Notes under the pieces: generated by a model
What the model was told of the DNA's origin: nothing
Database searches by the model: none
Seen by the model: only the letters and a program-made list of their open reading frames with translations
DNA from: Escherichia coli
GTDB taxonomy: Bacteria; Pseudomonadota; Gammaproteobacteria; Enterobacterales; Enterobacteriaceae
Assembly: GCF_022846255.1 (NCBI RefSeq)
Contig: NZ_AP025682.1
Strand: one strand, 5' to 3'
Length of the DNA: 64,000 nt
Translations under genes and position numbers: made by a program
Shown: piece after piece, positions 14,776 to 52,916 of the stretch
Position numbering within the stretch: the stretch's first letter is position 1
Layout: each line of letters begins with the position of its first letter

Positions 14776-14825
14776 AGTGCGGTATCAGTATTCAGGTAGC
14801 TGTTGAGCCTGGGGCGGTAGCGTGC
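14776..14825 (+). promoter_or_regulatory. JUMPstart region with ops element GGCGGTAGCGTG (14813-14824) in the waaQ operon leader
   Basis: Exact 12-nt ops sequence about 50-100 nt upstream of the waaQ start on the coding strand; RfaH-dependent antitermination is established for waaQ operons. Confidence 0.7.
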
Positions 14826-39550: not shown

Positions 39551-40323
39551 GCGTTTTTCTCCCTCGAATGCTCATTATGGTCACCAGGCAGGCGGGTAAT
39601 GCGTGCATGGCGAGCCTGATCTTCATCGAATCGTTTCATGGTGGTGTGAACAAAGCTAAGGTGCGCCATCATTGCTTTACGCGCCCCGTCAGCATCACCG
39701 GCAAAAATGGCGTCAATGACTGCCTGATGTTGTTCGGTCAGCTGTGAAAAAACCGGGGGTACCAGATACATCCGCTGGCGGCTATGCTTCACGGAGGATT
39801 GCAGGACATCGAAGAAACCGCGCATGGTTTGCAGCAGCACGATGTTATGTGAGGCTTCGGCAATCGCCAGATGAAAACGAACGTCCGCTTGTGAGGCGAG
39901 ATCCGGGTCTTCACTTAGCGTTGCTTCAAAGCAAAGCTGAATCTTTTCTTTTTCGCCAGGTGTGGCGCGCATTGCCGCATGCCACGCGGTGCTGGCTTCA
40001 ATGGCGTAGCGGGCTTCCAGAATATCGAAACTGTAATCCGGATCATCGGCCATCAGCGTTTTCAGCGGCTGGACGATGTTTTGCTCCGACCATGTGTCAT
40101 GACGCCAGCGAATAAACGTCCCGCCGCCACGTCGACTGAGCAGCACACCTTCGCTTACCAGTTTCGCCAGCGCCTCGCGCAGTGAATTTCTCGACACGCC
40201 GAGTTGCATCGCCAGTTGACGTTCAGCGGGCAACTTCATGCCCGCTTCCAGGTTTTTTTCATCAATCAGCGCCCGCACACGATCGGCAACCTCGTCTGAC
40301 AGGCGTCTGGGTAAAACAATCAT
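39547..40323 (-). CDS. lldR: GntR-family regulator LldR
   Basis: ORF contains [52 protein letters not shown]...; 258 aa; overlaps the lldD start and lldP stop. Confidence 0.9.
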
Positions 40324-41978
40324 TAAGGAATCATCCACGTTAAGACATAGGCCTGAAGCGTGGTGATCACGCCCACCATACAGGTGAAGATCAGGCTGTG
40401 TTTGACAGTAAAGCGGAACAAATCAGACTCTTTGCCCACCAGGCCTACCGCCGCACAGGCGATAGCGATAGATTGCGGAGAGATCATTTTGCCGGTGACA
40501 CCACCGGTGGTGTTGGCAGCAACCAGCAACAGGTCAGAAACGCCAATTTGTTGTGCGGCGGTAGCCTGCAAAGCGGCAAACAAAGCATTAGATGACGTAT
40601 CCGACCCGGTCAGGAATACCCCAAGCCAGCCGAGGAACGGCGAGAAGAAGGTGAATGCATGACCGGTGTGCGCCAGTGCCAGCGCCAGTGTTGATGACAA
40701 ACCGGAATAGTTCGAGATAAAGGCGAACGCCAGCACCATACCGATGGAGTAGATAGGCAGAGCCAGTTCTTTCAGCGTGCTGCCGAAGGTGCTGATAGCG
40801 TCAGATGGTTTCATCTTCAGCCAGACAATCGAGAGCAGGGCAGCAAAAAGAATGGCGGTACCGGTGGCAGAGAACCAGTCAAACTTAAACACGGCGGCAT
40901 ACGCTGTCGCTTCGCTGACCACTGGCGGCATACGGGCAACCAGTTTATCGAGGTACGGCACCGGAATGTTGATCACCCACTCATACAGCGCACCGCCTGA
41001 AGCGAACAGGGCTTTAAACGGCGGGATACTCCACAGCGTTACGGTGGCGGTCAGGAACAGAAACGGTGTCCAGGCGCGCAGCACCTGACCTGCCGTGTAA
41101 CCTGTGTGAGCCAGCGTCATATCAACCTGTGACGCCCCCAAGTCACCGAAGCGGAATACGCGCACTGGTTGCCAGCGTTTGAGGAACAGCGTCAGGCAGA
41201 GCAGTGATACCAGCGAAGAGATAATGTCTGGCAGTTCCGGCCCAATGAAGTTAGAGCTGAGGTATTGAGCAATGGCAAACGAACCACCTGCAACCACGAC
41301 CGCAGGCCACGTCTCTTTGATACCGCGCCAACCGTCCATAATCGCCATGATCCAGAACAGCACGATAATGGTCATAAACGGCAGCTGACGCCCCACCATC
41401 TGACCAATCTCAAAGCTGTCGATGCCTGTTACCTGCCCGGCGACCAGAATCGGAATACCCATCGCGCCAAATGCCACTGGTGCGGTGTTAACAATCAGGC
41501 ACAGTCCGGCGGCGTAGAGTGGTTTAAAGCCCAGACCGACCAGCAATGCGGCGGTAATTGCTACCGGTGCGCCAAAGCCTGCGGCTCCTTCAAGGAAAGC
41601 GCCGAAACAGAAACCGACGATCAGCATTTGCAGGCGCTGGTCAGGGGTTATCGAAAGAATAGACGAGCGAATGATGTCAAACTGCCCGGTTTTCACCGAG
41701 ATCTTATAGACGAACACCGCTGCAATAATGATCCACGCGATGGGCCACAACCCGTAGAAGAAGCCATAAACCACCGAGGCCAGCGCGTTAGCGACCGGCA
41801 TTTTATAGAACAGCAAAGCCACGGCAAGGGCGATTGCCACCGTCCATGAGGCGGCGACGTATCCTTTCAGTTTGAGCTTAATCAGCGCAAAGAAGAAAAA
41901 CAGGATGGGAAGCGATGCTATCAGGCTGGAAAGCCAGATATTCCCGGCGGGATCGTAGTTTTGTTGCCAGAGATTCAT
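40323..41978 (-). CDS. lldP: L-lactate permease
   Basis: ORF contains [44 protein letters not shown]...; 551 aa, polytopic. Confidence 0.95.
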
Positions 41979-42052
41979 TGCAGGTCTCCTGCAGTCCACA
42001 CACGCCGTGTAATGAGTCTGTTGCTCATCTCCTTGTCACACGTTGTGTAAAA

Positions 42053-42194: not shown

Positions 42195-42273
42195 TGGGAG
42201 AGGGGTAATGAAGAAAAGGGCAATTCCCATCAGAGAATTGCCCTCAGATTGTTGATCTGGTGCGCCTTATCTT

Positions 42274-42357
42274 GCCGGATGCGGCGTGAACGCCTTATCC
42301 GGCCTACAGGGTAGTGCTGAATCACCCCGTAGGCCTGATAAGCGTAGCGCATCAGGC
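42274..42357. repeat. BIME: two inverted REP elements between the adhesin gene 3' end and the lldP promoter
   Basis: GCCGGATGCGGCGTGAACGCCTTATCCGGCCTAC followed by inverted REP GTAGGCCTGATAAGCGTAGCGCATCAGGC. Confidence 0.75.
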
Positions 42358-42389
42358 AATGTGGCGTTTACCCATTTGTTAATGGATCA

Positions 42390-45300
42390 TTACCACTGAA
42401 TACCAGCACCGAGTGCGGCGGAGTATTCACCCTGGCTATTGGTACTACCTTGTAATTTGTAGACCCAACGACCATTGGCGCTCACCATCGACACACCTAA
42501 AGCAACAGCCGATTCACCGTTGTAAGTACCGCCACCAATAGACGCCATGCTGGCACCCGGCGTGTAAGCCTGCGGCAGACCGGTCATTGCCATTGCAGAA
42601 GCGATACCACCACTCAGCTTGCTTTCAGTTTTGGACAGTTTGTTATCCATCTCAACCATGCGCTGATCGGTGTATTGCTTCGTTTCCTGCACACTTTGCT
42701 TCAACTGCGCATAGTTCACTGCGTCGTTGTTGTTCACGCCAGCAGAAACGTTGCTGATGCGAGTCGTACCGCTATTGCCGCCACCGAGAGTGATGTTGCT
42801 GTAGTCGATAGAGCCATCAGCTTTGGTGTCGTAGCGCACGCCGCCTGCTTCAGAAGACTTCAGTTGCGAAACGTTAACCGCATCGGTGGCATTAACACCG
42901 GCAGCAACGTTGGTGATACGGCGCTGGTTGGTAGAAGAACCCACAGAGATCGTATTTTCTTCGTCTGCTACGGAACCCGTGCCCAGTGCGACGCTGTTGT
43001 CAGCGGCAGCAATGGAACCAGAACCAATCGCAACACTGTCTTTACCCTGCGCGTTGGCGTCTGCGCCATCGGTGTTGGTCTTGAAGTACTTAGTGCTACC
43101 GGTGGTTACGATATCGCCAATGCCGTTTTCGATATTGGTCACGCGAGTATCCAGATTAGTGACCTGAGTGTTCAGGTTAGTAATGCTCTGGGTATTCTGG
43201 GAAACCTGCGCGTCCGTTACTTTCAACTGACCCACGTTAACCGCATCGGTATCCGCCGAACCTGCTGCGACGTTGGTGATCTGACGTTGACCGTCTTCAC
43301 TGCCGACAGAGAACTCACCCACAGAGTTCTGCGGTGCGTCCATGTTGTAGGCAGTGTAGTTGGTCTGCGCGCCACGGGTAGTCTGAGAACCATTACCCAT
43401 TGCAATGCTGTCGGCATGATTTGCGCGTGCGTTAGAACCGATAGCAATACCGTTGATCGCATCAGCCAGAACTAAAGTGTTCAGGCCGATACCAATACCC
43501 GCATTACCATTAACGATGGTTTTCGCGCCCATTGCCAGCGAGTCTTCACCGACTGCCAGTGAGTCTTCAGCCGTTGAGTTGGCGTGATAGTATTTGGTTG
43601 GTGTGGTTGCGACTGCACCAATGGCGTTCTGCAACTGGCGAACAGTAACAGCGTCATGGGCTTCAGAACCATCCGCGACGTTGATGATTTGACGATATTT
43701 ACCATCATCACCGATCGACAATGCACCAAGCAGTTCGCCGTCAGTTGTGTCATAACCAATAACCACTCCATCTTCTGTTACGCTGGTAGAGCGTGAACCT
43801 TTCAAAATGACCCGGTTAGAGACCGAATTGCTGCCTAATGCGATGCCGGAATCGATAGTGCTACTGCTGTTCTGACCAATCGCGACACTGCTTTCCCCGG
43901 AAGCGACAGAGTTATAACCCACAGCCGTTGAGCCAACGCCCGCGGCGCTTGCGTCGACAAAGGTTAAGCCCGTGTCGTTGGTGCGAACATAGTTAATACC
44001 CGCCCCATTTTCTTCGATATAGGTACTGTTAGTATTACCGGCGAGTTGGTTGATGATCTCACTATTCTGATTGATCAACATATTCGCGGCATACAACTGA
44101 GAACCGTTAACGGCATCGGTACTGGCGGCAGAAAGTTCACCTGCGGCAACATTCGTGATTTTGCTGGTGGTGTTAGTGCCGTGCGCCGCAGAGAATGAGC
44201 CGGATACGGAATCCCACGTCATCGCATCTTCACCGAGACTGTCGATAGCATCAGTCAGATTGGTGATGTTGGTAGTGTTAGTGGCAACGTCAGTGGTCAG
44301 ATTACTGATATTGGTGGTGTTGGCTGCCACATTCTCGTTGGTAGTATTCAACTGAGAGCCATTAATCGCATCAGTACTGGTGGCACTGATCTCACCCGCA
44401 GCAACATAAGCGATTTTGCTGGCACTACCACCGTGACTGGCACTGAAACTGCCTGAAGCGTTGTCCCAGAGCAGGGCATCGCCGAGTGAGGTTCCGACCG
44501 AAGTGTTAATGGCTGCCAGGGCATCGCCTACGCTGTTGTAGTCAGTTCCATTAATACTATAGGTTGGGCCAGTAAATACACCTGTATCACTTACAGTGGC
44601 ACCGCCACCAAAATAATCCGCTACCGTACTGCTAAGACCGTAGAGTTGTCCACCGTTCACGGCATCGGTACTGGTGGCAGAAATAGCACCTGCGGTGACA
44701 TTGGTGATTTTGCTGGTGGCGTCAGTGCCGTGCGCAGCGCTGAATGCTGTGCCCTTCCACAACAGAGAATCGTCACCGAGACTGTCAACAGCGTCAGTCA
44801 GGTTAGTGATACTGGTGGTATTGCCAGCGACGTCGTTGGTCAGATTAGTGATATTGGTAGTGTTGGCAGCAACATCGTCTTTGGTGGCTTTCAACTGCGA
44901 ACCGTTAACGGCGTCAGTGCTGCCAGCTGTCAGGTCACCGGCTTTGACATTGGTGATTTTGCTGGTGGCGTCAGTGCCGTGCGCAGCGCTGAATGCTGTG
45001 CCCTTCCACAACAGAGAATCGTCACCGAGACTGTCAACAGCGTCAGTCAGGTTAGTGATACTGGTGGTATTGCCAGCGACGTCGTTGGTCAGATTAGTGA
45101 TATTGGTAGTGTTGGCAGCAACATCGTCTTTGGTGGCTTTCAACTGCGAACCGTTAACGGCGTCAGTGCTGCCAGCTGTCAGGTCACCGGCTTTGACATT
45201 GGTGATTTTGCTGGTGGCGTCAGTGCCGTGCGCAGCGCTGAATGCTGTGCCCTTCCACAACAGAGAATCGTCACCGAGACTGTCAACAGCGTCAGTCAGG

Positions 45301-47021
45301 TTAGTGATACTGGTGGTATTGCCAGCGACGTCGTTGGTCAGATTAGTGATATTGGTAGTGTTGGCAGCAACGTCGTCTTTGGTGGCTTTCAACTGCGAAC
45401 CGTTAACAGCGTCAGTGCTGCCAGCAGTCAGGCTGCCAGCACTGACGTTGGTGATTTTGCTGGTGGCTTCGGTGCCGTGTGCGGCACTGAATGCTGTGCC
45501 GTTCCACAACAGAGCATCCTGCTGCAGGTCGTACAATTGAGAGCCGTTTACTACATCGGTGCTGGTTGCAGAAACCGTACCTTTAGCAACATTAGTGATT
45601 TTGTTGGTGGCATTTGCACCGTGATTGGCGCTGAACGCCCCCGCGGTTTTATTCCATTGTAGGGTATTATTGTCGATTCCTGACAGAGCATCACCCACGT
45701 TATTATAGGTTCCGCTTCTCAACGCGTAGCTTACTGCGGTTACGGTGCCATCGCTGCCTACAGTAGCGCCTCCTCCGAGTCGCTTGGCGACTGAATCACT
45801 GATCGTATAAAGCTGTGAGCCGTTGATGGCATCGGTACTGGTGTTGCTTATGGCACCAGCAGCCATATTAACAATTTTGCGTTTTGTTGCGCTGTTGCCA
45901 ACTGAAACCGTATTGCTTGCATCTGTGGTCGATCCTGCGCCGATAGCGACAGAATTGTCGGTCGCTGCTGCAGCCCCTACACCGAGGGCGACAGAATCAT
46001 TGCCGTTTGCCCTGGACTGGCTACCGAAAGCAAGGCTGTTGCTGCCACCAGCGGCACTACCCTCTCCCAATGCGATGGCATTCTCTCCCGAGGACAAACT
46101 GTTACTTCCCAACGCGATTGAGTTCACTTTGCTTGCAATGCTACCTTGCCCCAGCGCAATCGCATTTTGTTCGCTGGCTTCACTGGTGTTACCTAATGCA
46201 ATACTGGATTCGCCAGATGCCTGACTTGCATTACCCAGGGCCATCGAATTCACTCCCAGGGCTTGCGTTTTGTTCCCAATCGCGATGGCGTTATCGTTCG
46301 AACTGATACTGTCAGCACCTATTGCCAGTGAGCCAGTGCTATTAGCTGTAGATTGTCTGCCGAATGCGAGGCTATCAGCACCGGCAGCATTGCTACTTGC
46401 TCCCAGCGCCATTGCATAATCTTTTGACGCATTGGCATTATCACCGAGGGCGATGCTCATAATTTCGTAAGCTTTAGCCGAATTTCCTAACGCAATAGTT
46501 TTTTCACCATCGGCAAGGGAGGAGTCCCCAATAGCAAGAGATGTATAACCATTCGTCTTTGCGTAACGACCAAAAGCCATCGAACGATCGCCATTTGCTA
46601 CTGACGATGCACCCAGCGCGACACTTCTGTCACCCATTGATTTTGCACTAACCCCGAACGCCATGGATGCTCCACCAGTTGCAAGGGTTTTTGACCCGAT
46701 GGCAGAACTGTACTCACCTTCGGCTATCGCGTCATATCCTAAAGCTGTACTCGCGCCACTAGTGTTCATAAAGGTATTTGCTTTTGCCCCTTTACCGATA
46801 GCAACCCAGCCGTCACCTGCTGAGCCATCGCCATAATCAGTTGGCTGCCCGTCGTAGTTATTAGCTAACGCTCCAAACGACGACAACAACCCACCCGCAA
46901 CCAACGCAGAAATTAACAGCTTACTGCGCCCGCTTTTTTTACCACGGCTCTTCGCCGTTTCGCTGGCAACGCTGTAACTGCCCGTCGCCGGGTTCCAGAT
47001 AACTTTAAATATTTTATTCAT
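42390..47021 (-). CDS. upaG: Trimeric autotransporter adhesin, UpaG/EhaG/SadA family (1543 aa)
   Basis: N-terminal extended signal peptide [21 protein letters not shown]...; long low-complexity stalk with tandem repeats; C-terminal YadA-like anchor ending ...[13 protein letters not shown]; located between yibL and lldP, where UpaG/EhaG sit. Confidence 0.85.
44640..45620. repeat. Tandem 249-bp (83-codon) direct repeats inside the adhesin gene, about 3 near-identical copies plus diverged flanking copies
   Basis: Segment ttggtgattttgctggtggcgtcagtgccgtgcgcagcgctgaatgctgtgccc... recurs near 44701, 44950 and 45199; the protein shows the unit [25 protein letters not shown]...[11 protein letters not shown] three times. 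Confidence 0.85.
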
Positions 47022-47064
47022 TATTGATGCTCTCTATTCCTTGATATAAGCGCAGAGGCTGCAT

Positions 47065-47748
47065 TTATTTTTTGTTTTTCCGCTGTGGAGATTCAGCAGT
47101 TTGAAGACGGTCGAACTGAATATTTGCCATGTTGATGGCTAATTTCAGATATTTGAGGTTGTTGGGCGAGACACCTTTTAGCGTCAAATTAATGTCTTGC
47201 CATTGACCTGGTAATAATTTCAGGGAGGAGTTCATTGAGGTACTAAATAGCAATTGCTGCCATTTTGCTAATGCGTTGATGTCGGTGGGTTTTTCTCCCC
47301 CCCATGTCGCGTAGAAACCCATATTTGATACAGGAACACTTAATAAGTTAACCAGTGAAATACGAATAACGCTGCCGTTTTCTACTGCGTCAATAGACAG
47401 TATTTTCCCTGCCAAACCAACAGAACCGTTATTTAAAATGAAGTATTGGGTTTGTGCCGGGTTAAATTCTGTAAAGACAAATTCGTCCTGTTTGTCTTTA
47501 ACTGCCTTCACCACGCCAGCGAGCGTTTTGGTACTGTTTATGATGGTAGTTTGTTGTTTTTCAAAGTGTTCTATCTTGCGCTTGTCGAGTTCTTGTTGTT
47601 TTTCAAGCGCCTCAATTTTGCTTTTTTGTAACTCTTGCTGTGTAACGAGATCGTCGACCTTACTCGCTTTTTCAATATAGTCACACCCTACCAATAAGCA
47701 AAGTTGCAATATCATTAACACGCTTAACAGTGTTTTCTTTAGGTTCAT
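47065..47748 (-). CDS. SadB-like lipoprotein encoded just upstream of the adhesin gene
   Basis: 227-aa ORF with lipoprotein signal peptide and lipobox (LLVGC), then a coiled-coil-like stretch (ELQKSKIEALEKQQELDKRKIEHFEKQQ) and a C-terminal domain; 43 bp upstream of and co-oriented with the adhesin gene, like Salmonella sadB-sadA. Confidence 0.65.
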   Translation of the reverse strand: MNLKKTLLSVLMILQLCLLVGCDYIEKASKVDDLVTQQELQKSKIEALEKQQELDKRKIEHFEKQQTTIINSTKTLAGVVKAVKDKQDEFVFTEFNPAQTQYFILNNGSVGLAGKILSIDAVENGSVIRISLVNLLSVPVSNMGFYATWGGEKPTDINALAKWQQLLFSTSMNSSLKLLPGQWQDINLTLKGVSPNNLKYLKLAINMANIQFDRLQTAESPQRKNKK

Positions 47749-48306
47749 AGGATGAATTCCTTTTCATAATCCCGATACAGTTGATAATTACGGCACAATC
47801 ATTTTTTTTATGAATAATTGGAGTGGGGCATATCCGCAAAATAAATTTGTTAGAGAATTTTTGTATTAATTGGTTGTGCGAATATGTTATTAAATGTCAA
47901 ACGATTTCAGTTTGTAGCCAATAATATTAATCGCGCGGATTTTAATGATCGGTGTCAATCGATGTCAAATGTTTCACCGGATAAAGGCACAGGGCATGGA
48001 AAGGTAAATATTCAGTTGAGTGATGTTTTATTGTGGAATTTGCGAAGATGATTGAAAAATTTAAATAATTAATTATGTTTCAAGCATTGATATGCGGCAA
48101 TTCATTGTTAATATTGATACATCGTTCTTTAATTTGTATCTGATTTTCAGAATTTAGCCTGGCATGTGCGCTAAAAAGAATAGAGGAGATTGAATATATA
48201 ATGTTAAGAACGTTATAAATATTCGATCTCTGAAACAGGCTCCTGCATGTGCCAGCAGGAGCGAGTAAATGGTGAGAGGCTGTGATTACAGCGACGAGAA
48301 AGGAAC

Positions 48307-48669
48307 TTAAAACGCAGTCTTTGAGAACCCTGTCATCTCTTGCAGGCCCATTTCACGGCCCAGCGCGGTCATTGGGTGCACAACCACCAGTCCGCGAACA
48401 CTTTTTTTCAGTTTGCCCATATCAGCCTGCTCTTTTTTGGTGATTGCACGCTGGAACGGCATCTTCATCAGTTTCTGCGCTTCTTTGCTGAGTTTCTGGC
48501 TGTGAACTTCGCGCAGGCGAGCAATTTCTGCTTCCAGCGTGGCTTTCTCTTTTTCCAGTTCGGCATATTTGTCTGCGGCTTCAACCAGCGATAGATCGGC
48601 CTGCTGGTGACGGATGGCGTCCAGACGATCGCTGAGACGTTTGATTTCGTTTTTTTCGACTTCTTTCAT
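48307..48669 (-). CDS. yibL: YibL (ribosome-associated protein, 120 aa)
   Basis: 120-aa [59 protein letters not shown]... Confidence 0.85.
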
Positions 48670-49172: not shown

Positions 49173-49760
49173 TTACTTTTGAAAGGCTTTTTTTAAGCTG
49201 ATTTTGGAAATCAGCTCTGTCAGTGAAAGGACCATTGTTGATCGCACAGCCTGTTGGTAACGCTGAATTTGCATTGCATACAAACTGGAGTCTGCAGGTT
49301 CAAACTGTGGCGGCGGTGGTAACGCCGCCACGCAATGCAGTTCACCAAAGGGTCCAAGTATTTCGTCGTCGGTAAAAGCGTACTCGTTGCCGTCGTGATT
49401 TAGCTCTTCACGCAATGCCATCAGCAGTTCCGCATCTTCGTATTCCTGGCGGTTAATGACGCCCAACCCGTAAATGAGTTTTAAACGCACAGAAAGATCG
49501 CCCAGCGGACCATCGCCGTCGAGTAACGGTTCTACAGCATACTTCACCGCGTAATCGTCTTTGCGGAATACCTGAAGCACCAGAAGATTTACCGCCTCGG
49601 TCAAAAGCTCGACGGCGGTGATCAGAAAGCTTCGCACGGTTTTGCCAGCATTCAGACGCTCAAGCACACGGTTTTCAAAGGCCTGGGTTTGTTCCATTGT
49701 TGCCTGCATATCTGACAATCTGTTATTCGGGCGCAGGGTATCCTGCGCCTGGTCCACCAT
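49173..49760 (-). CDS. mtlR: Mannitol operon repressor MtlR
   Basis: 195-aa [56 protein letters not shown]... Confidence 0.9.
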   Translation of the reverse strand: MVDQAQDTLRPNNRLSDMQATMEQTQAFENRVLERLNAGKTVRSFLITAVELLTEAVNLLVLQVFRKDDYAVKYAVEPLLDGDGPLGDLSVRLKLIYGLGVINRQEYEDAELLMALREELNHDGNEYAFTDDEILGPFGELHCVAALPPPPQFEPADSSLYAMQIQRYQQAVRSTMVLSLTELISKISLKKAFQK

Positions 49761-50908
49761 TATTGCATTGCTTTATAAGCGGTTACCGCCTCGGATACAA
49801 CCTCGCTGTTGGCATCAAGACCGGAAATCTGTGCCAGCGCGGCTTGTGGGCCTTTGTCGGCAATCAGCGCTGCCAGTTCCTGAGCCTGCGGATCATCTTC
49901 ACTGCGGAAGTGCATTGCAGCGGCAATACCTTCAATCAGGTTTTTATGTGGCAGACCATATTCCAGGGTTCCGAGCAGTGGCTTGATCAGACGGTCGCCA
50001 GCACTCAGTTTACGCAGCGGCTGACGGCCTACGCGTTCTACATCATCTTTCAGGTACGGGTTCTCGAAACGACCGAGGATTTTCTGGATGTATGCCGCAT
50101 GTTTGTCAGCATCAAAGCCGTAGCGCTTGATCAATACCGCGCCGCTTTCTTCCATTGCCCCTTTTACCACCGCGCGGATTTTCTCGTCGAGAATTGCGTC
50201 ACGAATGGTCTGATGACCGGCCAGTTTTCCGAGGTACGCGGTTATAGCATGACCTGTATTCAGGGTGAAGAGTTTACGTTCGACAAATGCCATCAGATTG
50301 TCGGTTAATTCCATGCCAGGGATGTTTGGCAGCGTGCCTTTGAACTGCGTTTTATCGACAATCCATTCGCTGAAGGTTTCTACCGTCACTTCCAGCGGAT
50401 CGTTAGTTGCCGAAGCCGAAGGCGGTACGATGCGGTCAACGGCGGAATCAACAAAGCCAACGTGTTCTTCTACCCACGCTTTGGCATCTTCCGGCAGGGC
50501 GTTCATCACATGGCCTTTCAGCTGCGTGGTGCCGCGGACCATGTTTTCACAGGCGATGATGTTCAGCGGAGATTCATTACCTTGTTCTTTACGTTTCACC
50601 AGCCCTTTGGCGATGGCCGGAGCAATACGTTCCAGCACGACAGGGCCAACGGCGGTAGTGACTAAATCGACCTGAGCAATCAGATCAACGACATCATCGC
50701 CAATGCTGCTGACGGCATTGACGCCGGAAACGGTATCTACCTGCTCGGTTTCACCAACCACATGAACCTGATAGCTATGACGGGCATTCAGGGCATCAAG
50801 TACCACCTGATTTACATCGGCAAACGTCAGTTGGATACCCGCGTCCGCCAGCAGTTTACCGATAAAGCCACGACCGATATTACCTGCGCCAAAATGTAAT
50901 GCTTTCAT
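49760..50908 (-). CDS. mtlD: Mannitol-1-phosphate 5-dehydrogenase
   Basis: ORF contains [53 protein letters not shown]...; 382 aa from ATG at 50906-50908. Confidence 0.95.
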
Positions 50909-50934
50909 AGTATTAACCTTCATCAATGTTTTTA

Positions 50935-51000
50935 CCCGAGAGGGCTGGGGTGAGGCTTTTCCCTCACCCAAACCCTCTCCATGTGGAGAGGGAGGGATTG
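50935..51000. repeat. Intergenic palindromic element between mtlA and mtlD (paired stem-loops)
   Basis: GGGGTGAGG-CTTTT-CCCTCACCC followed by CCCTCTCC-ATGTGG-AGAGGGAGG; REP-like structure within the operon. Confidence 0.5.
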
Positions 51001-51002
51001 TA

Positions 51003-52916
51003 TTACTTACGACCAGCCAGCAGTTCCAGTACTTCATCCACGCTGGTGGTGTGTGCCAGACGCTCGATGACAGTCTCATCATCCAGTGCATTGGTCAGGC
51101 TGGTGATAACCTGAATGTGCTCGTTGTTACGGGCAGCAATACCAATCACCAGACGGGCAATGTCATCTTCTTCTTCACCGAAGCGCACGCCTTCCGGGTA
51201 CTGGCAGAACACCACGCCCGTTTTCAGTACGCGATCTTTTGCTTCAACCGTACCGTGTGGCACCGCGATAGACTCACCCAGATAAGTCGGGGTCAGTTTT
51301 TCACGATCCAGCATCGCCTGAACATATTCCGGCTCAACGTAACCGCCTTTCACCAGCTGCTCGCCAGCAAAACGAATCGCTTCTTCTTTGGTGGCCGCTT
51401 TGCGACCGAGGAAGATGTTCTCCGCGCCCAGTTTGAACAGATTAGCACTGGAATCGTCAAAGCTGTCTTTCAGACTGTCTTTCACTTTCACTTCGTTTTC
51501 AGTATGGCGCTGGGCAGCAACCAGACGTTCGGTCAGGCTGGTGTACAGGCCGCTGTCGAGGAAGTTGGTCAGCGAAATATGCTGTGCCTGCGGAACCTGG
51601 CGCATAGCGCGTTCGGTCAGGTCACGGTGAGTGATGACCAGGTCCACATCTGGCGGCAGGTTGTTGATCGCGCTGTTAGTAACAGAAATCTGCGACAGAC
51701 CTGCATCCTGAATTTTCTTACGCAGCACACCTGCGCCCATCGCACTGGAACCCATACCGGCATCACAGGCAACGATGATTTTACGTACGTGGCTCAGGTC
51801 GTTAGTCACATCGCCCGCAGACAGCGGAGATGCACCTTTAGACTCAGCTTTCATGTCCTGCATACGACGCGTTGCTGCTTCAATATCATCTTCTTCTTTC
51901 ACTTTGCTGGTTTTCAGCAGAATGGCAGAGACAACGAAGGAGACAGCCATCGCCGCACACACACCCGCGATGTTAGCGAAATAAGCACCTTTTGGTGTCA
52001 TCGCCAGTACAGCAAGGATAGAACCCGGAGATGCCGGAGAAACCAGACCACCGCCCAGGATAGTCAGCGTGAACACGCCAGTCATACCACCGAGGATAAC
52101 GGCCAGAATCAGACGCGGATTCATCAGCACATACGGGAAGTAGATTTCGTGGATACCCCCCAGGAAGTGGATGATTGCCGCACCGCCCGCAGACTGTTTA
52201 GCGCTACCACGACCAAAGAACATGTACGCCAGCAGCACGCCCATACCTGGACCTGGGTTAGCTTCAATCAGGAAGAAGATGGATTTACCCAGTTCATGGG
52301 ACTGCTGAATACCCAGCGGCGAGAAGATACCGTGGTTAATAGCGTTGTTGAGGAACAGGATTTTCGCCGGTTCAACAAAGATAGACGCCAGCGGCAGCAT
52401 GTCATGGACAACCATGAAGTTAACGCCCGCCGCCAGCATTTTAGACAGGGCTTCAACAACCGGGCCAATGCCGAGAAATGCCAGAATAGCGAGGATCATC
52501 CCGATGATGCCTGCGGAGAAGTTATTCACCAGCATTTCAAAACCGGATTTGATCTTACCGTCTACCCAGCGGTCGAAGTGCTTAATGCACCAGCCGCCCA
52601 GCGGACCTGCAATCATAGAGCCGAGGAACATCGGCATATCTGCGCCGACGATAACGCCCATGGTGGTGATGGCACCGACTACGCCGCCACGTTCGCCGCC
52701 TACCAGCTTACCACCGGTATAACCGATCAGCAGCGGCAGGAGATAAGTGATCATCGGCCCGACCAGCTTCGCCAGCGTTTCGTTCGGTAACCACCCTGTT
52801 GGAATAAATAACGCGGTGATGATACCCCACGCGATAAACGCGCCGATATTTGGCATCACCATGTTGCTGAGGAAACGACCAAAGCTTTGCACTTTGATCT
52901 TAATATCGGATGACAT
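51003..52916 (-). CDS. mtlA: PTS mannitol-specific EIICBA component
   Basis: 637-aa [59 protein letters not shown]... Confidence 0.95.

Follow-up and report, generated by a model that had tools for sequence, protein, structure and literature searches.

Introduction

The closest described relatives of the locus reported here are the SadB-SadA pair of Salmonella and the Escherichia coli adhesins UpaG and EhaG. SadB, a lipoprotein of the inner membrane that forms trimers, enhances the surface display of the trimeric autotransporter SadA, and the size of this effect was about three-fold in two independent studies with artificial promoters (PMC3953254, PMC11054257). Like the E. coli protein described below, SadB of Salmonella carries Cys-22 followed by Asp at +2, and it was found experimentally to be an inner-membrane lipoprotein (PMC3953254). 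In Escherichia, Salmonella and Shigella the sadBA genes occupy the interval that separates the mtl operon from the lld operon, a site at which K-12 has a deletion (PMC3953254, PMC11054257); the operon, its location and the K-12 deletion were already reported by Grin et al. in 2014. Adhesion, aggregation and biofilm phenotypes are known for UpaG and EhaG, according to reviews, and a review table citing Totsika 2012 gives upaG as derepressed by hns deletion (PMC12525524). Trimeric assembly of UpaG has been shown experimentally, and its barrel trimerises in the periplasm (PMC5670179).

Results

Within the window, the whole stretch of 64,000 nucleotides of E. coli DNA that was analysed, we find what we take, with a probability of roughly 0.93 for the whole explanation of the pair, to be E. 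coli's sadB-upaG operon, which corresponds to sadBA of Salmonella. The analysis shows both genes directly, along with their domains, their orthologues and their place on the chromosome, and every feature given below is on the minus strand. A sadB-type gene (47065-47748) encodes a 227-aa product, predicted to be an inner-membrane lipoprotein in which a long N-terminal helix precedes a C-terminal beta-sandwich, and a upaG-type gene (42390-47021), recognised from its open reading frame, Pfam domains, PDB matches and alignment with UpaG, encodes a 1543-aa trimeric autotransporter adhesin. The 43-bp spacer between them (47022-47064) holds a Shine-Dalgarno-like AAGGAA for the adhesin gene and has no terminator-like hairpin. 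The first-pass annotation had placed the 227-aa frame 43 bp upstream of, and co-oriented with, the 1543-aa frame and had called the pair a described system, and it was right on both counts. The 1543-aa frame is not a chance one, because it scores with the Pfam families YadA_stalk (E 1.6e-120), YadA_head (E 6.2e-63), YadA_anchor and ESPR, and neither is the 227-aa frame, because it matches the crystal structure of Salmonella SadB (PDB 4C47, E 1.4e-66). A pseudogene reading of either gene was rejected, both frames being intact.

Residues 1-48 of the adhesin (46878-47021) form an extended signal peptide region (PF13018, ESPR, E 2.6e-16). Across the passenger, 21 stretches match YadA_head and 12 match YadA_stalk, and the DAVNGSQL-type neck motif occurs in 11 copies. 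A YadA-type membrane anchor (residues 1483-1543; 42393-42575) matches PF03895 over profile positions 1-60 of 60 (E 4.9e-19) and closes the protein with ...AALGAGIQW, the last residue thus being aromatic. This anchor also matched the solved anchors of Hia, 3EMO (E 3.3e-20) and 2GR7, and the adhesin matched the SadA fragment structures 2YO0 (E 3.6e-141), 2YO3, 2YNZ and 2YO2, as well as fragments of AtaA, UspA1 and BpaC in the PDB. The earlier proposals of an extended signal peptide and a YadA-like C-terminal anchor are therefore borne out, and head, stalk and anchor were all found. NCBIfam matches to Ata, EmaA, Vomp, BimA and YadA all fell far under the curated cut-offs, and they point only to a trimeric autotransporter, not to membership in any of those families. 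Judged by its domains, the 1543-aa protein is a trimeric autotransporter adhesin (type Vc secretion), and residues 1101-1543, which take in the anchor and are 100% identical to UpaG, suggest that it would stand at the cell surface as a homotrimer.

The 227-aa protein begins with MNLKKTLLSVLMILQLCLLVGC, then DYIEK, and its signal peptide with the lipobox LLVGC (47683-47748) ends at Cys22, which is followed directly by Asp23, an inner-membrane retention signal. Neither Pfam nor NCBIfam scans placed this protein in a family, even with the E threshold relaxed to 10, and the assignment to SadB therefore comes from the PDB match instead: residues 23-227 align with residues 3-207 of 4C47, which is to say the whole mature protein, over 205 residues with zero gaps and 52.7% identity. 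A structure model of the monomer, of medium confidence (mean pLDDT 66), has a helix at residues 3-89, then strands and a short helix; a Foldseek search with the model placed SadB (4C47, E 2.2e-19) first and YajI (2JWY, E 5.7e-05) second. YajI was recovered by the fold search alone and not by a PDB profile search with the SadB alignment. On this alignment evidence the 227-aa protein is a SadB orthologue, as had been proposed from its lipobox and coiled-coil segment, and the SadB crystal structure suggests by analogy that it may form a homotrimer through its N-terminal coiled coil.

The pair is flanked by yibL (48307-48669) and the lldP open reading frame (40323-41999). Alignment with K-12 MG1655 (blastn) breaks at 42332 and 48306, leaving a 5,973-bp accessory segment (42333-48305) that is missing from K-12, where about 11 bp replace it directly after the yibL stop codon. 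In the K-12 annotation lldP comes directly after yibL with a gap of 371 bp and, together with the alignment break, this gap means that the first-pass annotation was correct in giving the site as empty in K-12. Just 3' of the adhesin stop, sequence and junction comparison place a pair of palindromic elements (42280-42350) that we take to be REP-like, and the K-12 breakpoint lies between the two. CFT073, O157 Sakai, 382634_2f and ChlosBP-23-1 carry the pair at the same position with the same 43-bp spacer, whose sequence is nearly that seen here, and sadB-like DNA is present in no fewer than 4047 of the 5426 complete genomes of E. coli. An origin of the segment as a mobile element or island was rejected: no integrase, tRNA gene or inverted repeat was seen at its ends, and Salmonella has the pair at the same site. 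The repeat search of the locus found no inverted repeats, and a scan with Rfam detected no RNA families either within it or next to it.

Upstream of sadB lies an AT-rich intergenic region (47749-48305; GC 0.341 vs 0.501 for the whole window), which is the probable promoter and regulatory region and may be a target of H-NS. Its best sigma-70-like match (47939-47968; TTGACA, 18 nt, TAAAAT; 11/12 positions) lies some 190 bp upstream of the start codon of sadB. It agrees with the consensus and no more, as sites of this kind are not more numerous in the region than expected from shuffled sequence. A terminator-like hairpin with a 13-bp stem followed by a T-run (42216-42245) stands 145 bp past the adhesin stop and is the sole site of this kind on the minus strand in the region; none was found between sadB and upaG. 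From this layout, both genes would be co-transcribed from the AT-rich region downstream of yibL, with transcription ending at the hairpin, and the orthologues suggest that H-NS probably silences expression under laboratory conditions.

Discussion

The sadB-upaG unit is an ordinary one, found in many E. coli strains and already described, and only the stalk of the adhesin, shuffled and repeat-bearing, is specific to the strain. The adhesin is collinear with UpaG of CFT073 over its full length, with 88.7% identity across 1535 aligned residues, rising to 94.3% in the C-terminal 592 residues (952-1543). We considered whether it could instead be an EhaG-type allele, as in diarrhoeagenic strains, or another of the trimeric autotransporters of E. 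coli, for example Saa or Eib. The last 595 residues are indeed 88.4% identical to Sakai EhaG, and the conserved C-terminal third is common to all members; however, the head (residues 1-551) is 96.7% identical to UpaG vs 40-76%, in a gapped alignment, to EhaG, the linked lipoprotein is 98.7% identical to its CFT073 counterpart vs 70% to that of Sakai, and Saa and Eib are proteins of 392-535 aa according to the review cited above (PMC12525524). We therefore rejected the EhaG-type allele, and reading the adhesin as any of these others is highly improbable; on alignment it belongs to the UpaG/EhaG/SadA group of positional orthologues, as the first-pass annotation had supposed, and is nearest to UpaG. 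The divergent stalk carries a tandem array of 249 bp in 3.3 copies with 97% matches (44696-45518), found by Tandem Repeats Finder and a repeat search and translated as a run of 83-aa stalk modules over roughly residues 502-776, with exact peptide repeats beginning at residues 585, 668 and 751; a protein self-BLAST listed no internal repeats. Three near-identical repeats might be an artefact of assembly, the true gene being of another length, and the exact 1543-aa protein is recorded from one contig only, as the sole member of its 90% identity cluster. However, the reading frame is unbroken through the array, the independent complete genome of ChlosBP-23-1 aligns without gaps over residues 218-718 at 93.8% identity and so covers most of it, and an array of comparable modules also occurs in UpaG of CFT073, which leaves an artefact very unlikely.

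By analogy with the orthologues, we suggest that the 227-aa product of this sadB-upaG operon would be exported, lipidated at Cys22, held in the inner membrane by Asp23 and trimerised through its N-terminal coiled coil, and that the adhesin would cross the inner membrane by Sec, using its extended signal peptide. The C-terminal segments of three chains, four strands each, would then combine in a single 12-strand barrel that the Bam complex inserts in the outer membrane, after which the passenger would be passed to the outside as a fibre with head, necks and a coiled-coil stalk, able to promote aggregation and biofilms and to bind matrix proteins as well as epithelial cells. The SadB-type trimer may raise the amount and integrity of adhesin at the surface, perhaps by keeping the three chains in register. 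It is not strictly required, because UpaG assembled in strain AD202, which we take to be a K-12 derivative, and because Sakai has an amber codon in sadB together with an intact ehaG. The lipoprotein could be a co-inherited neighbour of no consequence for UpaG in E. coli, with Sec, chaperones and Bam sufficing. K-12 MG1655 is without sadB, yet UpaG constructs and derivatives assembled in AD202 (PMC5670179), and the TAG at codon 3 of Sakai sadB rules out a signal peptide translated from the annotated start. However, the pair and its spacer have been kept across divergent E. coli alleles and in Salmonella (44 bp there; PMC3953254), K-12 has lost the lipoprotein gene as well as the adhesin gene, and the boost that SadB gives to SadA was seen independently twice; we therefore regard a lipoprotein without consequence as unlikely. 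With three near-identical 83-aa modules, the three chains of the allele reported here could easily pair out of register, and its dependence on the SadB-type trimer may therefore be much stronger than that of UpaG or EhaG; recombination among the repeats might also alter the length of the stalk. We hold this to be doubtful, though if such dependence were real, the allele would be a natural case on which to try the proposal by Grin et al. that the register of repetitive stalks is set by SadB.

We see little significance in the locus past the correct annotation of the pair. RefSeq labels the products of the two genes only as 'YadA-like family protein' and 'DUF3251 domain-containing protein' or 'SadB/YajI family lipoprotein', and the genes can be named upaG (a stalk variant) and sadB. 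The locus also marks the strain as a carrier of an adhesin linked to extraintestinal E. coli and missing from K-12. Reviews discuss UpaG as a possible vaccine target, so a mosaic, length-variable stalk set against a conserved head and anchor bears on the choice of broadly useful antigens.

Comparison with known systems

The nearest relatives are UpaG of CFT073 and its lipoprotein (WP_001033292.1, WP_001049694.1), which share the site between yibL and lldP, the 43-bp spacer and the domain order. CFT073 UpaG has 1778 aa vs 1543 aa here, the stalk of our allele being 235 aa shorter; stalk residues 552-951 are 30-86% identical to it in blocks, with several deletions, and the three near-identical modules here contrast with a longer and more diverged array in CFT073. 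EhaG (ECs_4480) and the amber-bearing lipoprotein gene ECs_4479 of Sakai are likewise positional orthologues with a spacer of equal length, and the head and stalk of EhaG are strongly diverged from those of the adhesin here. Outside E. coli, the SadB-SadA pair of Salmonella enterica (STM3690-STM3691; 4C47, 2YO0-2YO3, 2YNZ) is likewise an operon of a lipoprotein and a trimeric autotransporter at the mtl-lld site. SadB resembles the 227-aa protein in its Cys22, Asp at +2, coiled coil and beta-sandwich, and the stalk and anchor segments of SadA are homologous to those here, although SadA has 1461 aa and another passenger composition. The first-pass view that the pair mirrors sadB-sadA thus stands for orthology and layout, while the helper effect belongs to what has been documented for the Salmonella pair only. 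YajI, an enterobacterial paralogue of SadB, shares the C-terminal beta-sandwich fold and is not linked to an autotransporter (PMC3953254). The TpgA-AtaA pair of Acinetobacter is analogous, in that the gene next to that of a trimeric autotransporter encodes a small envelope protein which aids display of the adhesin; however, TpgA is unrelated to SadB, with BamE-like and OmpA-like peptidoglycan-binding domains, and it acts at the barrel rather than as a coiled-coil trimer in the inner membrane.

Results

The first-pass annotation described a 227-aa lipoprotein encoded 43 bp upstream of a co-oriented 1543-aa adhesin, between yibL and lldP at a position that K-12 leaves empty, and each part of this description is borne out. 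Both open reading frames are in the ORF list on the minus strand, the sadB-type gene at window positions 47065-47748 and the adhesin gene at 42390-47021, with yibL (48307-48669) upstream of the pair and the lldP ORF (40323-41999) downstream. The spacer read from the sequence (47022-47064, minus strand) is 43 bp long and nearly identical across the five E. coli loci compared, with AAGGAA conserved before the adhesin start. The best promoter-like site on the minus strand (47968-47939, 11 of 12 matches) lies upstream of sadB. No terminator-like hairpin was seen between the two genes, and the sole one on this strand (42245-42216) follows the adhesin gene. From this layout, we infer that the two genes form an operon. 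GC content is 34% upstream of sadB, 39.6% in sadB and 51.9% in the adhesin gene, against 50.1% for the window; sadB and its upstream intergenic region (47065-48305) are much richer in AT than the adhesin gene or the window.

In K-12 MG1655, yibL is followed directly by lldP. The alignment with the window breaks at 42332 and 48306, and K-12 is without 5,973 bp, having about 11 bp instead. The deletion starts right after the yibL stop codon (window 48306; L001:5029-5040, in the K-12 MG1655 region), the junction containing about 11 unrelated bases, and at its other end it stops between two REP-like palindromes that closely follow the adhesin stop (window 42280-42350). At the same site, CFT073 has upaG (1778 aa) together with a gene for a 227-aa lipoprotein, and O157:H7 Sakai has ECs_4479 and ECs_4480, the latter being the 1588-aa EhaG adhesin. 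Among 5426 complete E. coli genomes, megablast found sadB-like DNA in at least 4047 and adhesin-gene DNA in at least 4157; both are minimum counts, since megablast misses diverged alleles. The flanks place the window in E. coli: identity to the best genomes reaches 99.6% towards mtl and 98.6% towards lld/waa.

Elsewhere in the window, an Rfam JUMPstart element (14786-14824, plus strand) scores 55 bits against a gathering score of 35, and nearby, from 18000 onward, the sequence matches the waa (LPS core) genes of other genomes. The mechanical mtlD ORF (49760-51091, minus strand) has 443 aa against the 382 aa annotated in K-12, its extra 61 codons reaching upstream into the spacer between mtlA and mtlD. 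The length of this spacer differs among strains, with 95 bp in Sakai, 230 in K-12 and 420 in CFT073.

The long ORF is not a chance frame, since Pfam scores YadA_stalk (E 1.6e-120, 12 stretches), YadA_head (E 6.2e-63, 21 stretches), YadA_anchor (E 4.9e-19, residues 1483-1543, the whole 60-position profile) and ESPR (E 2.6e-16, residues 1-48); the last two correspond to the C-terminal anchor and extended signal peptide originally proposed. The C-terminus reads AALGAGIQW. Fragments of Salmonella SadA match along the protein (2YO0 at residues 1126-1391, E 3.6e-141; 2YO3 at 1266-1469; 2YNZ at 908-1030; 2YO2 at 403-451), as do the solved structures of Hia membrane anchors (1456-1543) and of the UspA1, BpaA and EibD heads (about 124-414). 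All defining features open to computational testing were found.

The adhesin is collinear with CFT073 UpaG, with 96.7% identity over residues 1-551, 94.3% over 952-1543 and 100% over 1101-1543. Stalk residues 552-951 retain only short blocks at 30-86% identity to UpaG, with deletions summing to 235 residues. The head is far more diverged from EhaG than from UpaG, and the protein is therefore a UpaG-type allele carrying a different stalk. The stalk holds three near-identical 83-aa modules, encoded at 44696-45518 by 3.3 copies of a 249-bp unit with 97% identity; exact repeats in the peptide lie at residues 585, 668 and 751. The vervet-monkey isolate ChlosBP-23-1 matches at 99.0% over residues 844-1543 and 93.8% over 218-718 and is unlike the adhesin at the N-terminus, where the close relative is CFT073. 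The gene is mosaic. The whole allele was found in none of the complete RefSeq genomes, where the best matches cover 85% of the gene at 96.8% identity and 94% of it at 88%. An identical protein is on public record as WP_244331633.1 / BDH31290.1 ('YadA-like family protein'), and with about 15 billion sequences clustered at 90% identity, no other groups with it.

The smaller protein begins MNLKKTLLSVLMILQLCLLVGC-DYIEK, with a signal peptide, a lipobox whose Cys is residue 22, and Asp as the +2 residue. Its one strong solved-structure match is 4C47, the Salmonella inner-membrane lipoprotein SadB (E 1.4e-66), aligned without gaps over residues 23-227 on 3-207 at 52.7% identity, in agreement with its initial description as a SadB-like lipoprotein. 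Identity is 98.7% to the CFT073 protein, 70% to that of Sakai and 53% to SadB. An AlphaFold model built from a five-sequence alignment (mean pLDDT 66, medium confidence) predicts a single long helix (3-89), then a beta-rich domain that includes a short helix; Foldseek against the PDB ranks SadB top (E 2.2e-19) and its paralogue YajI second (2JWY, E 5.7e-05). No model in the Pfam and NCBIfam copies used detects the protein (47065-47748), and its relatives appear in RefSeq as 'DUF3251 domain-containing protein' or 'SadB/YajI family lipoprotein'.

Discussion

The gene pair, its domains, orthology and position are observed directly in the analysis, and the least secure part of the explanation is the helper step. 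SadB is a trimeric inner-membrane lipoprotein whose co-expression gives more surface SadA and higher protease resistance (PMC3953254), and a second study found SadA display about three-fold up with SadB (PMC11054257). By analogy, the lipoprotein described here would be trimeric, sit in the inner membrane and raise the amount of adhesin on the surface. The barrel segments of UpaG form trimers in the periplasm prior to Bam-dependent insertion (PMC5670179), and those of this adhesin would do likewise. UpaG mediates aggregation, biofilm formation and binding to fibronectin, laminin and bladder cells, and is derepressed by hns deletion (PMC12525524); we would expect the same activities, and repression by hns, of its relative here.

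Whether such a partner is required can be judged from two cases. In Sakai, the sadB orthologue opens with ATG AAC TAG, its third codon being amber (L004:18508-18516 in the Sakai region, upstream of ECs_4479), so that SadB is either dispensable for EhaG or lost in that lineage. The amber codon takes the place of a Leu codon (CTA) in the window; the sole product annotated by RefSeq starts at an internal TTG, is 193 aa long and has neither signal peptide nor lipobox, and the downstream ehaG is intact. Strain AD202 is a derivative of K-12, which has no sadB. UpaG derivatives were assembled in AD202 (PMC5670179), which together with the Sakai amber codon argues that SadB-type proteins are not required for display. 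They would therefore improve display rather than be required for it. With stalk repeats so nearly identical, this allele might rely on its SadB-type partner to an unusual degree for correct register; this seems unlikely to us and, if true, would be of modest interest.

What is specific to this strain is the mosaic stalk with its young three-fold repeat, which is ordinary variation for such adhesins. The pair is an already known system, as the first-pass annotation held, and the earlier interpretation is supported. Grin et al. (2014) described the site between the mtl and lld operons, a Salmonella spacer of 44 bp and the loss of both genes from K-12 by deletion (PMC3953254). A 2026 survey found SadB homologues confined to Enterobacterales, and EhaG and SadA are the positional orthologues of UpaG (PMC7247748).
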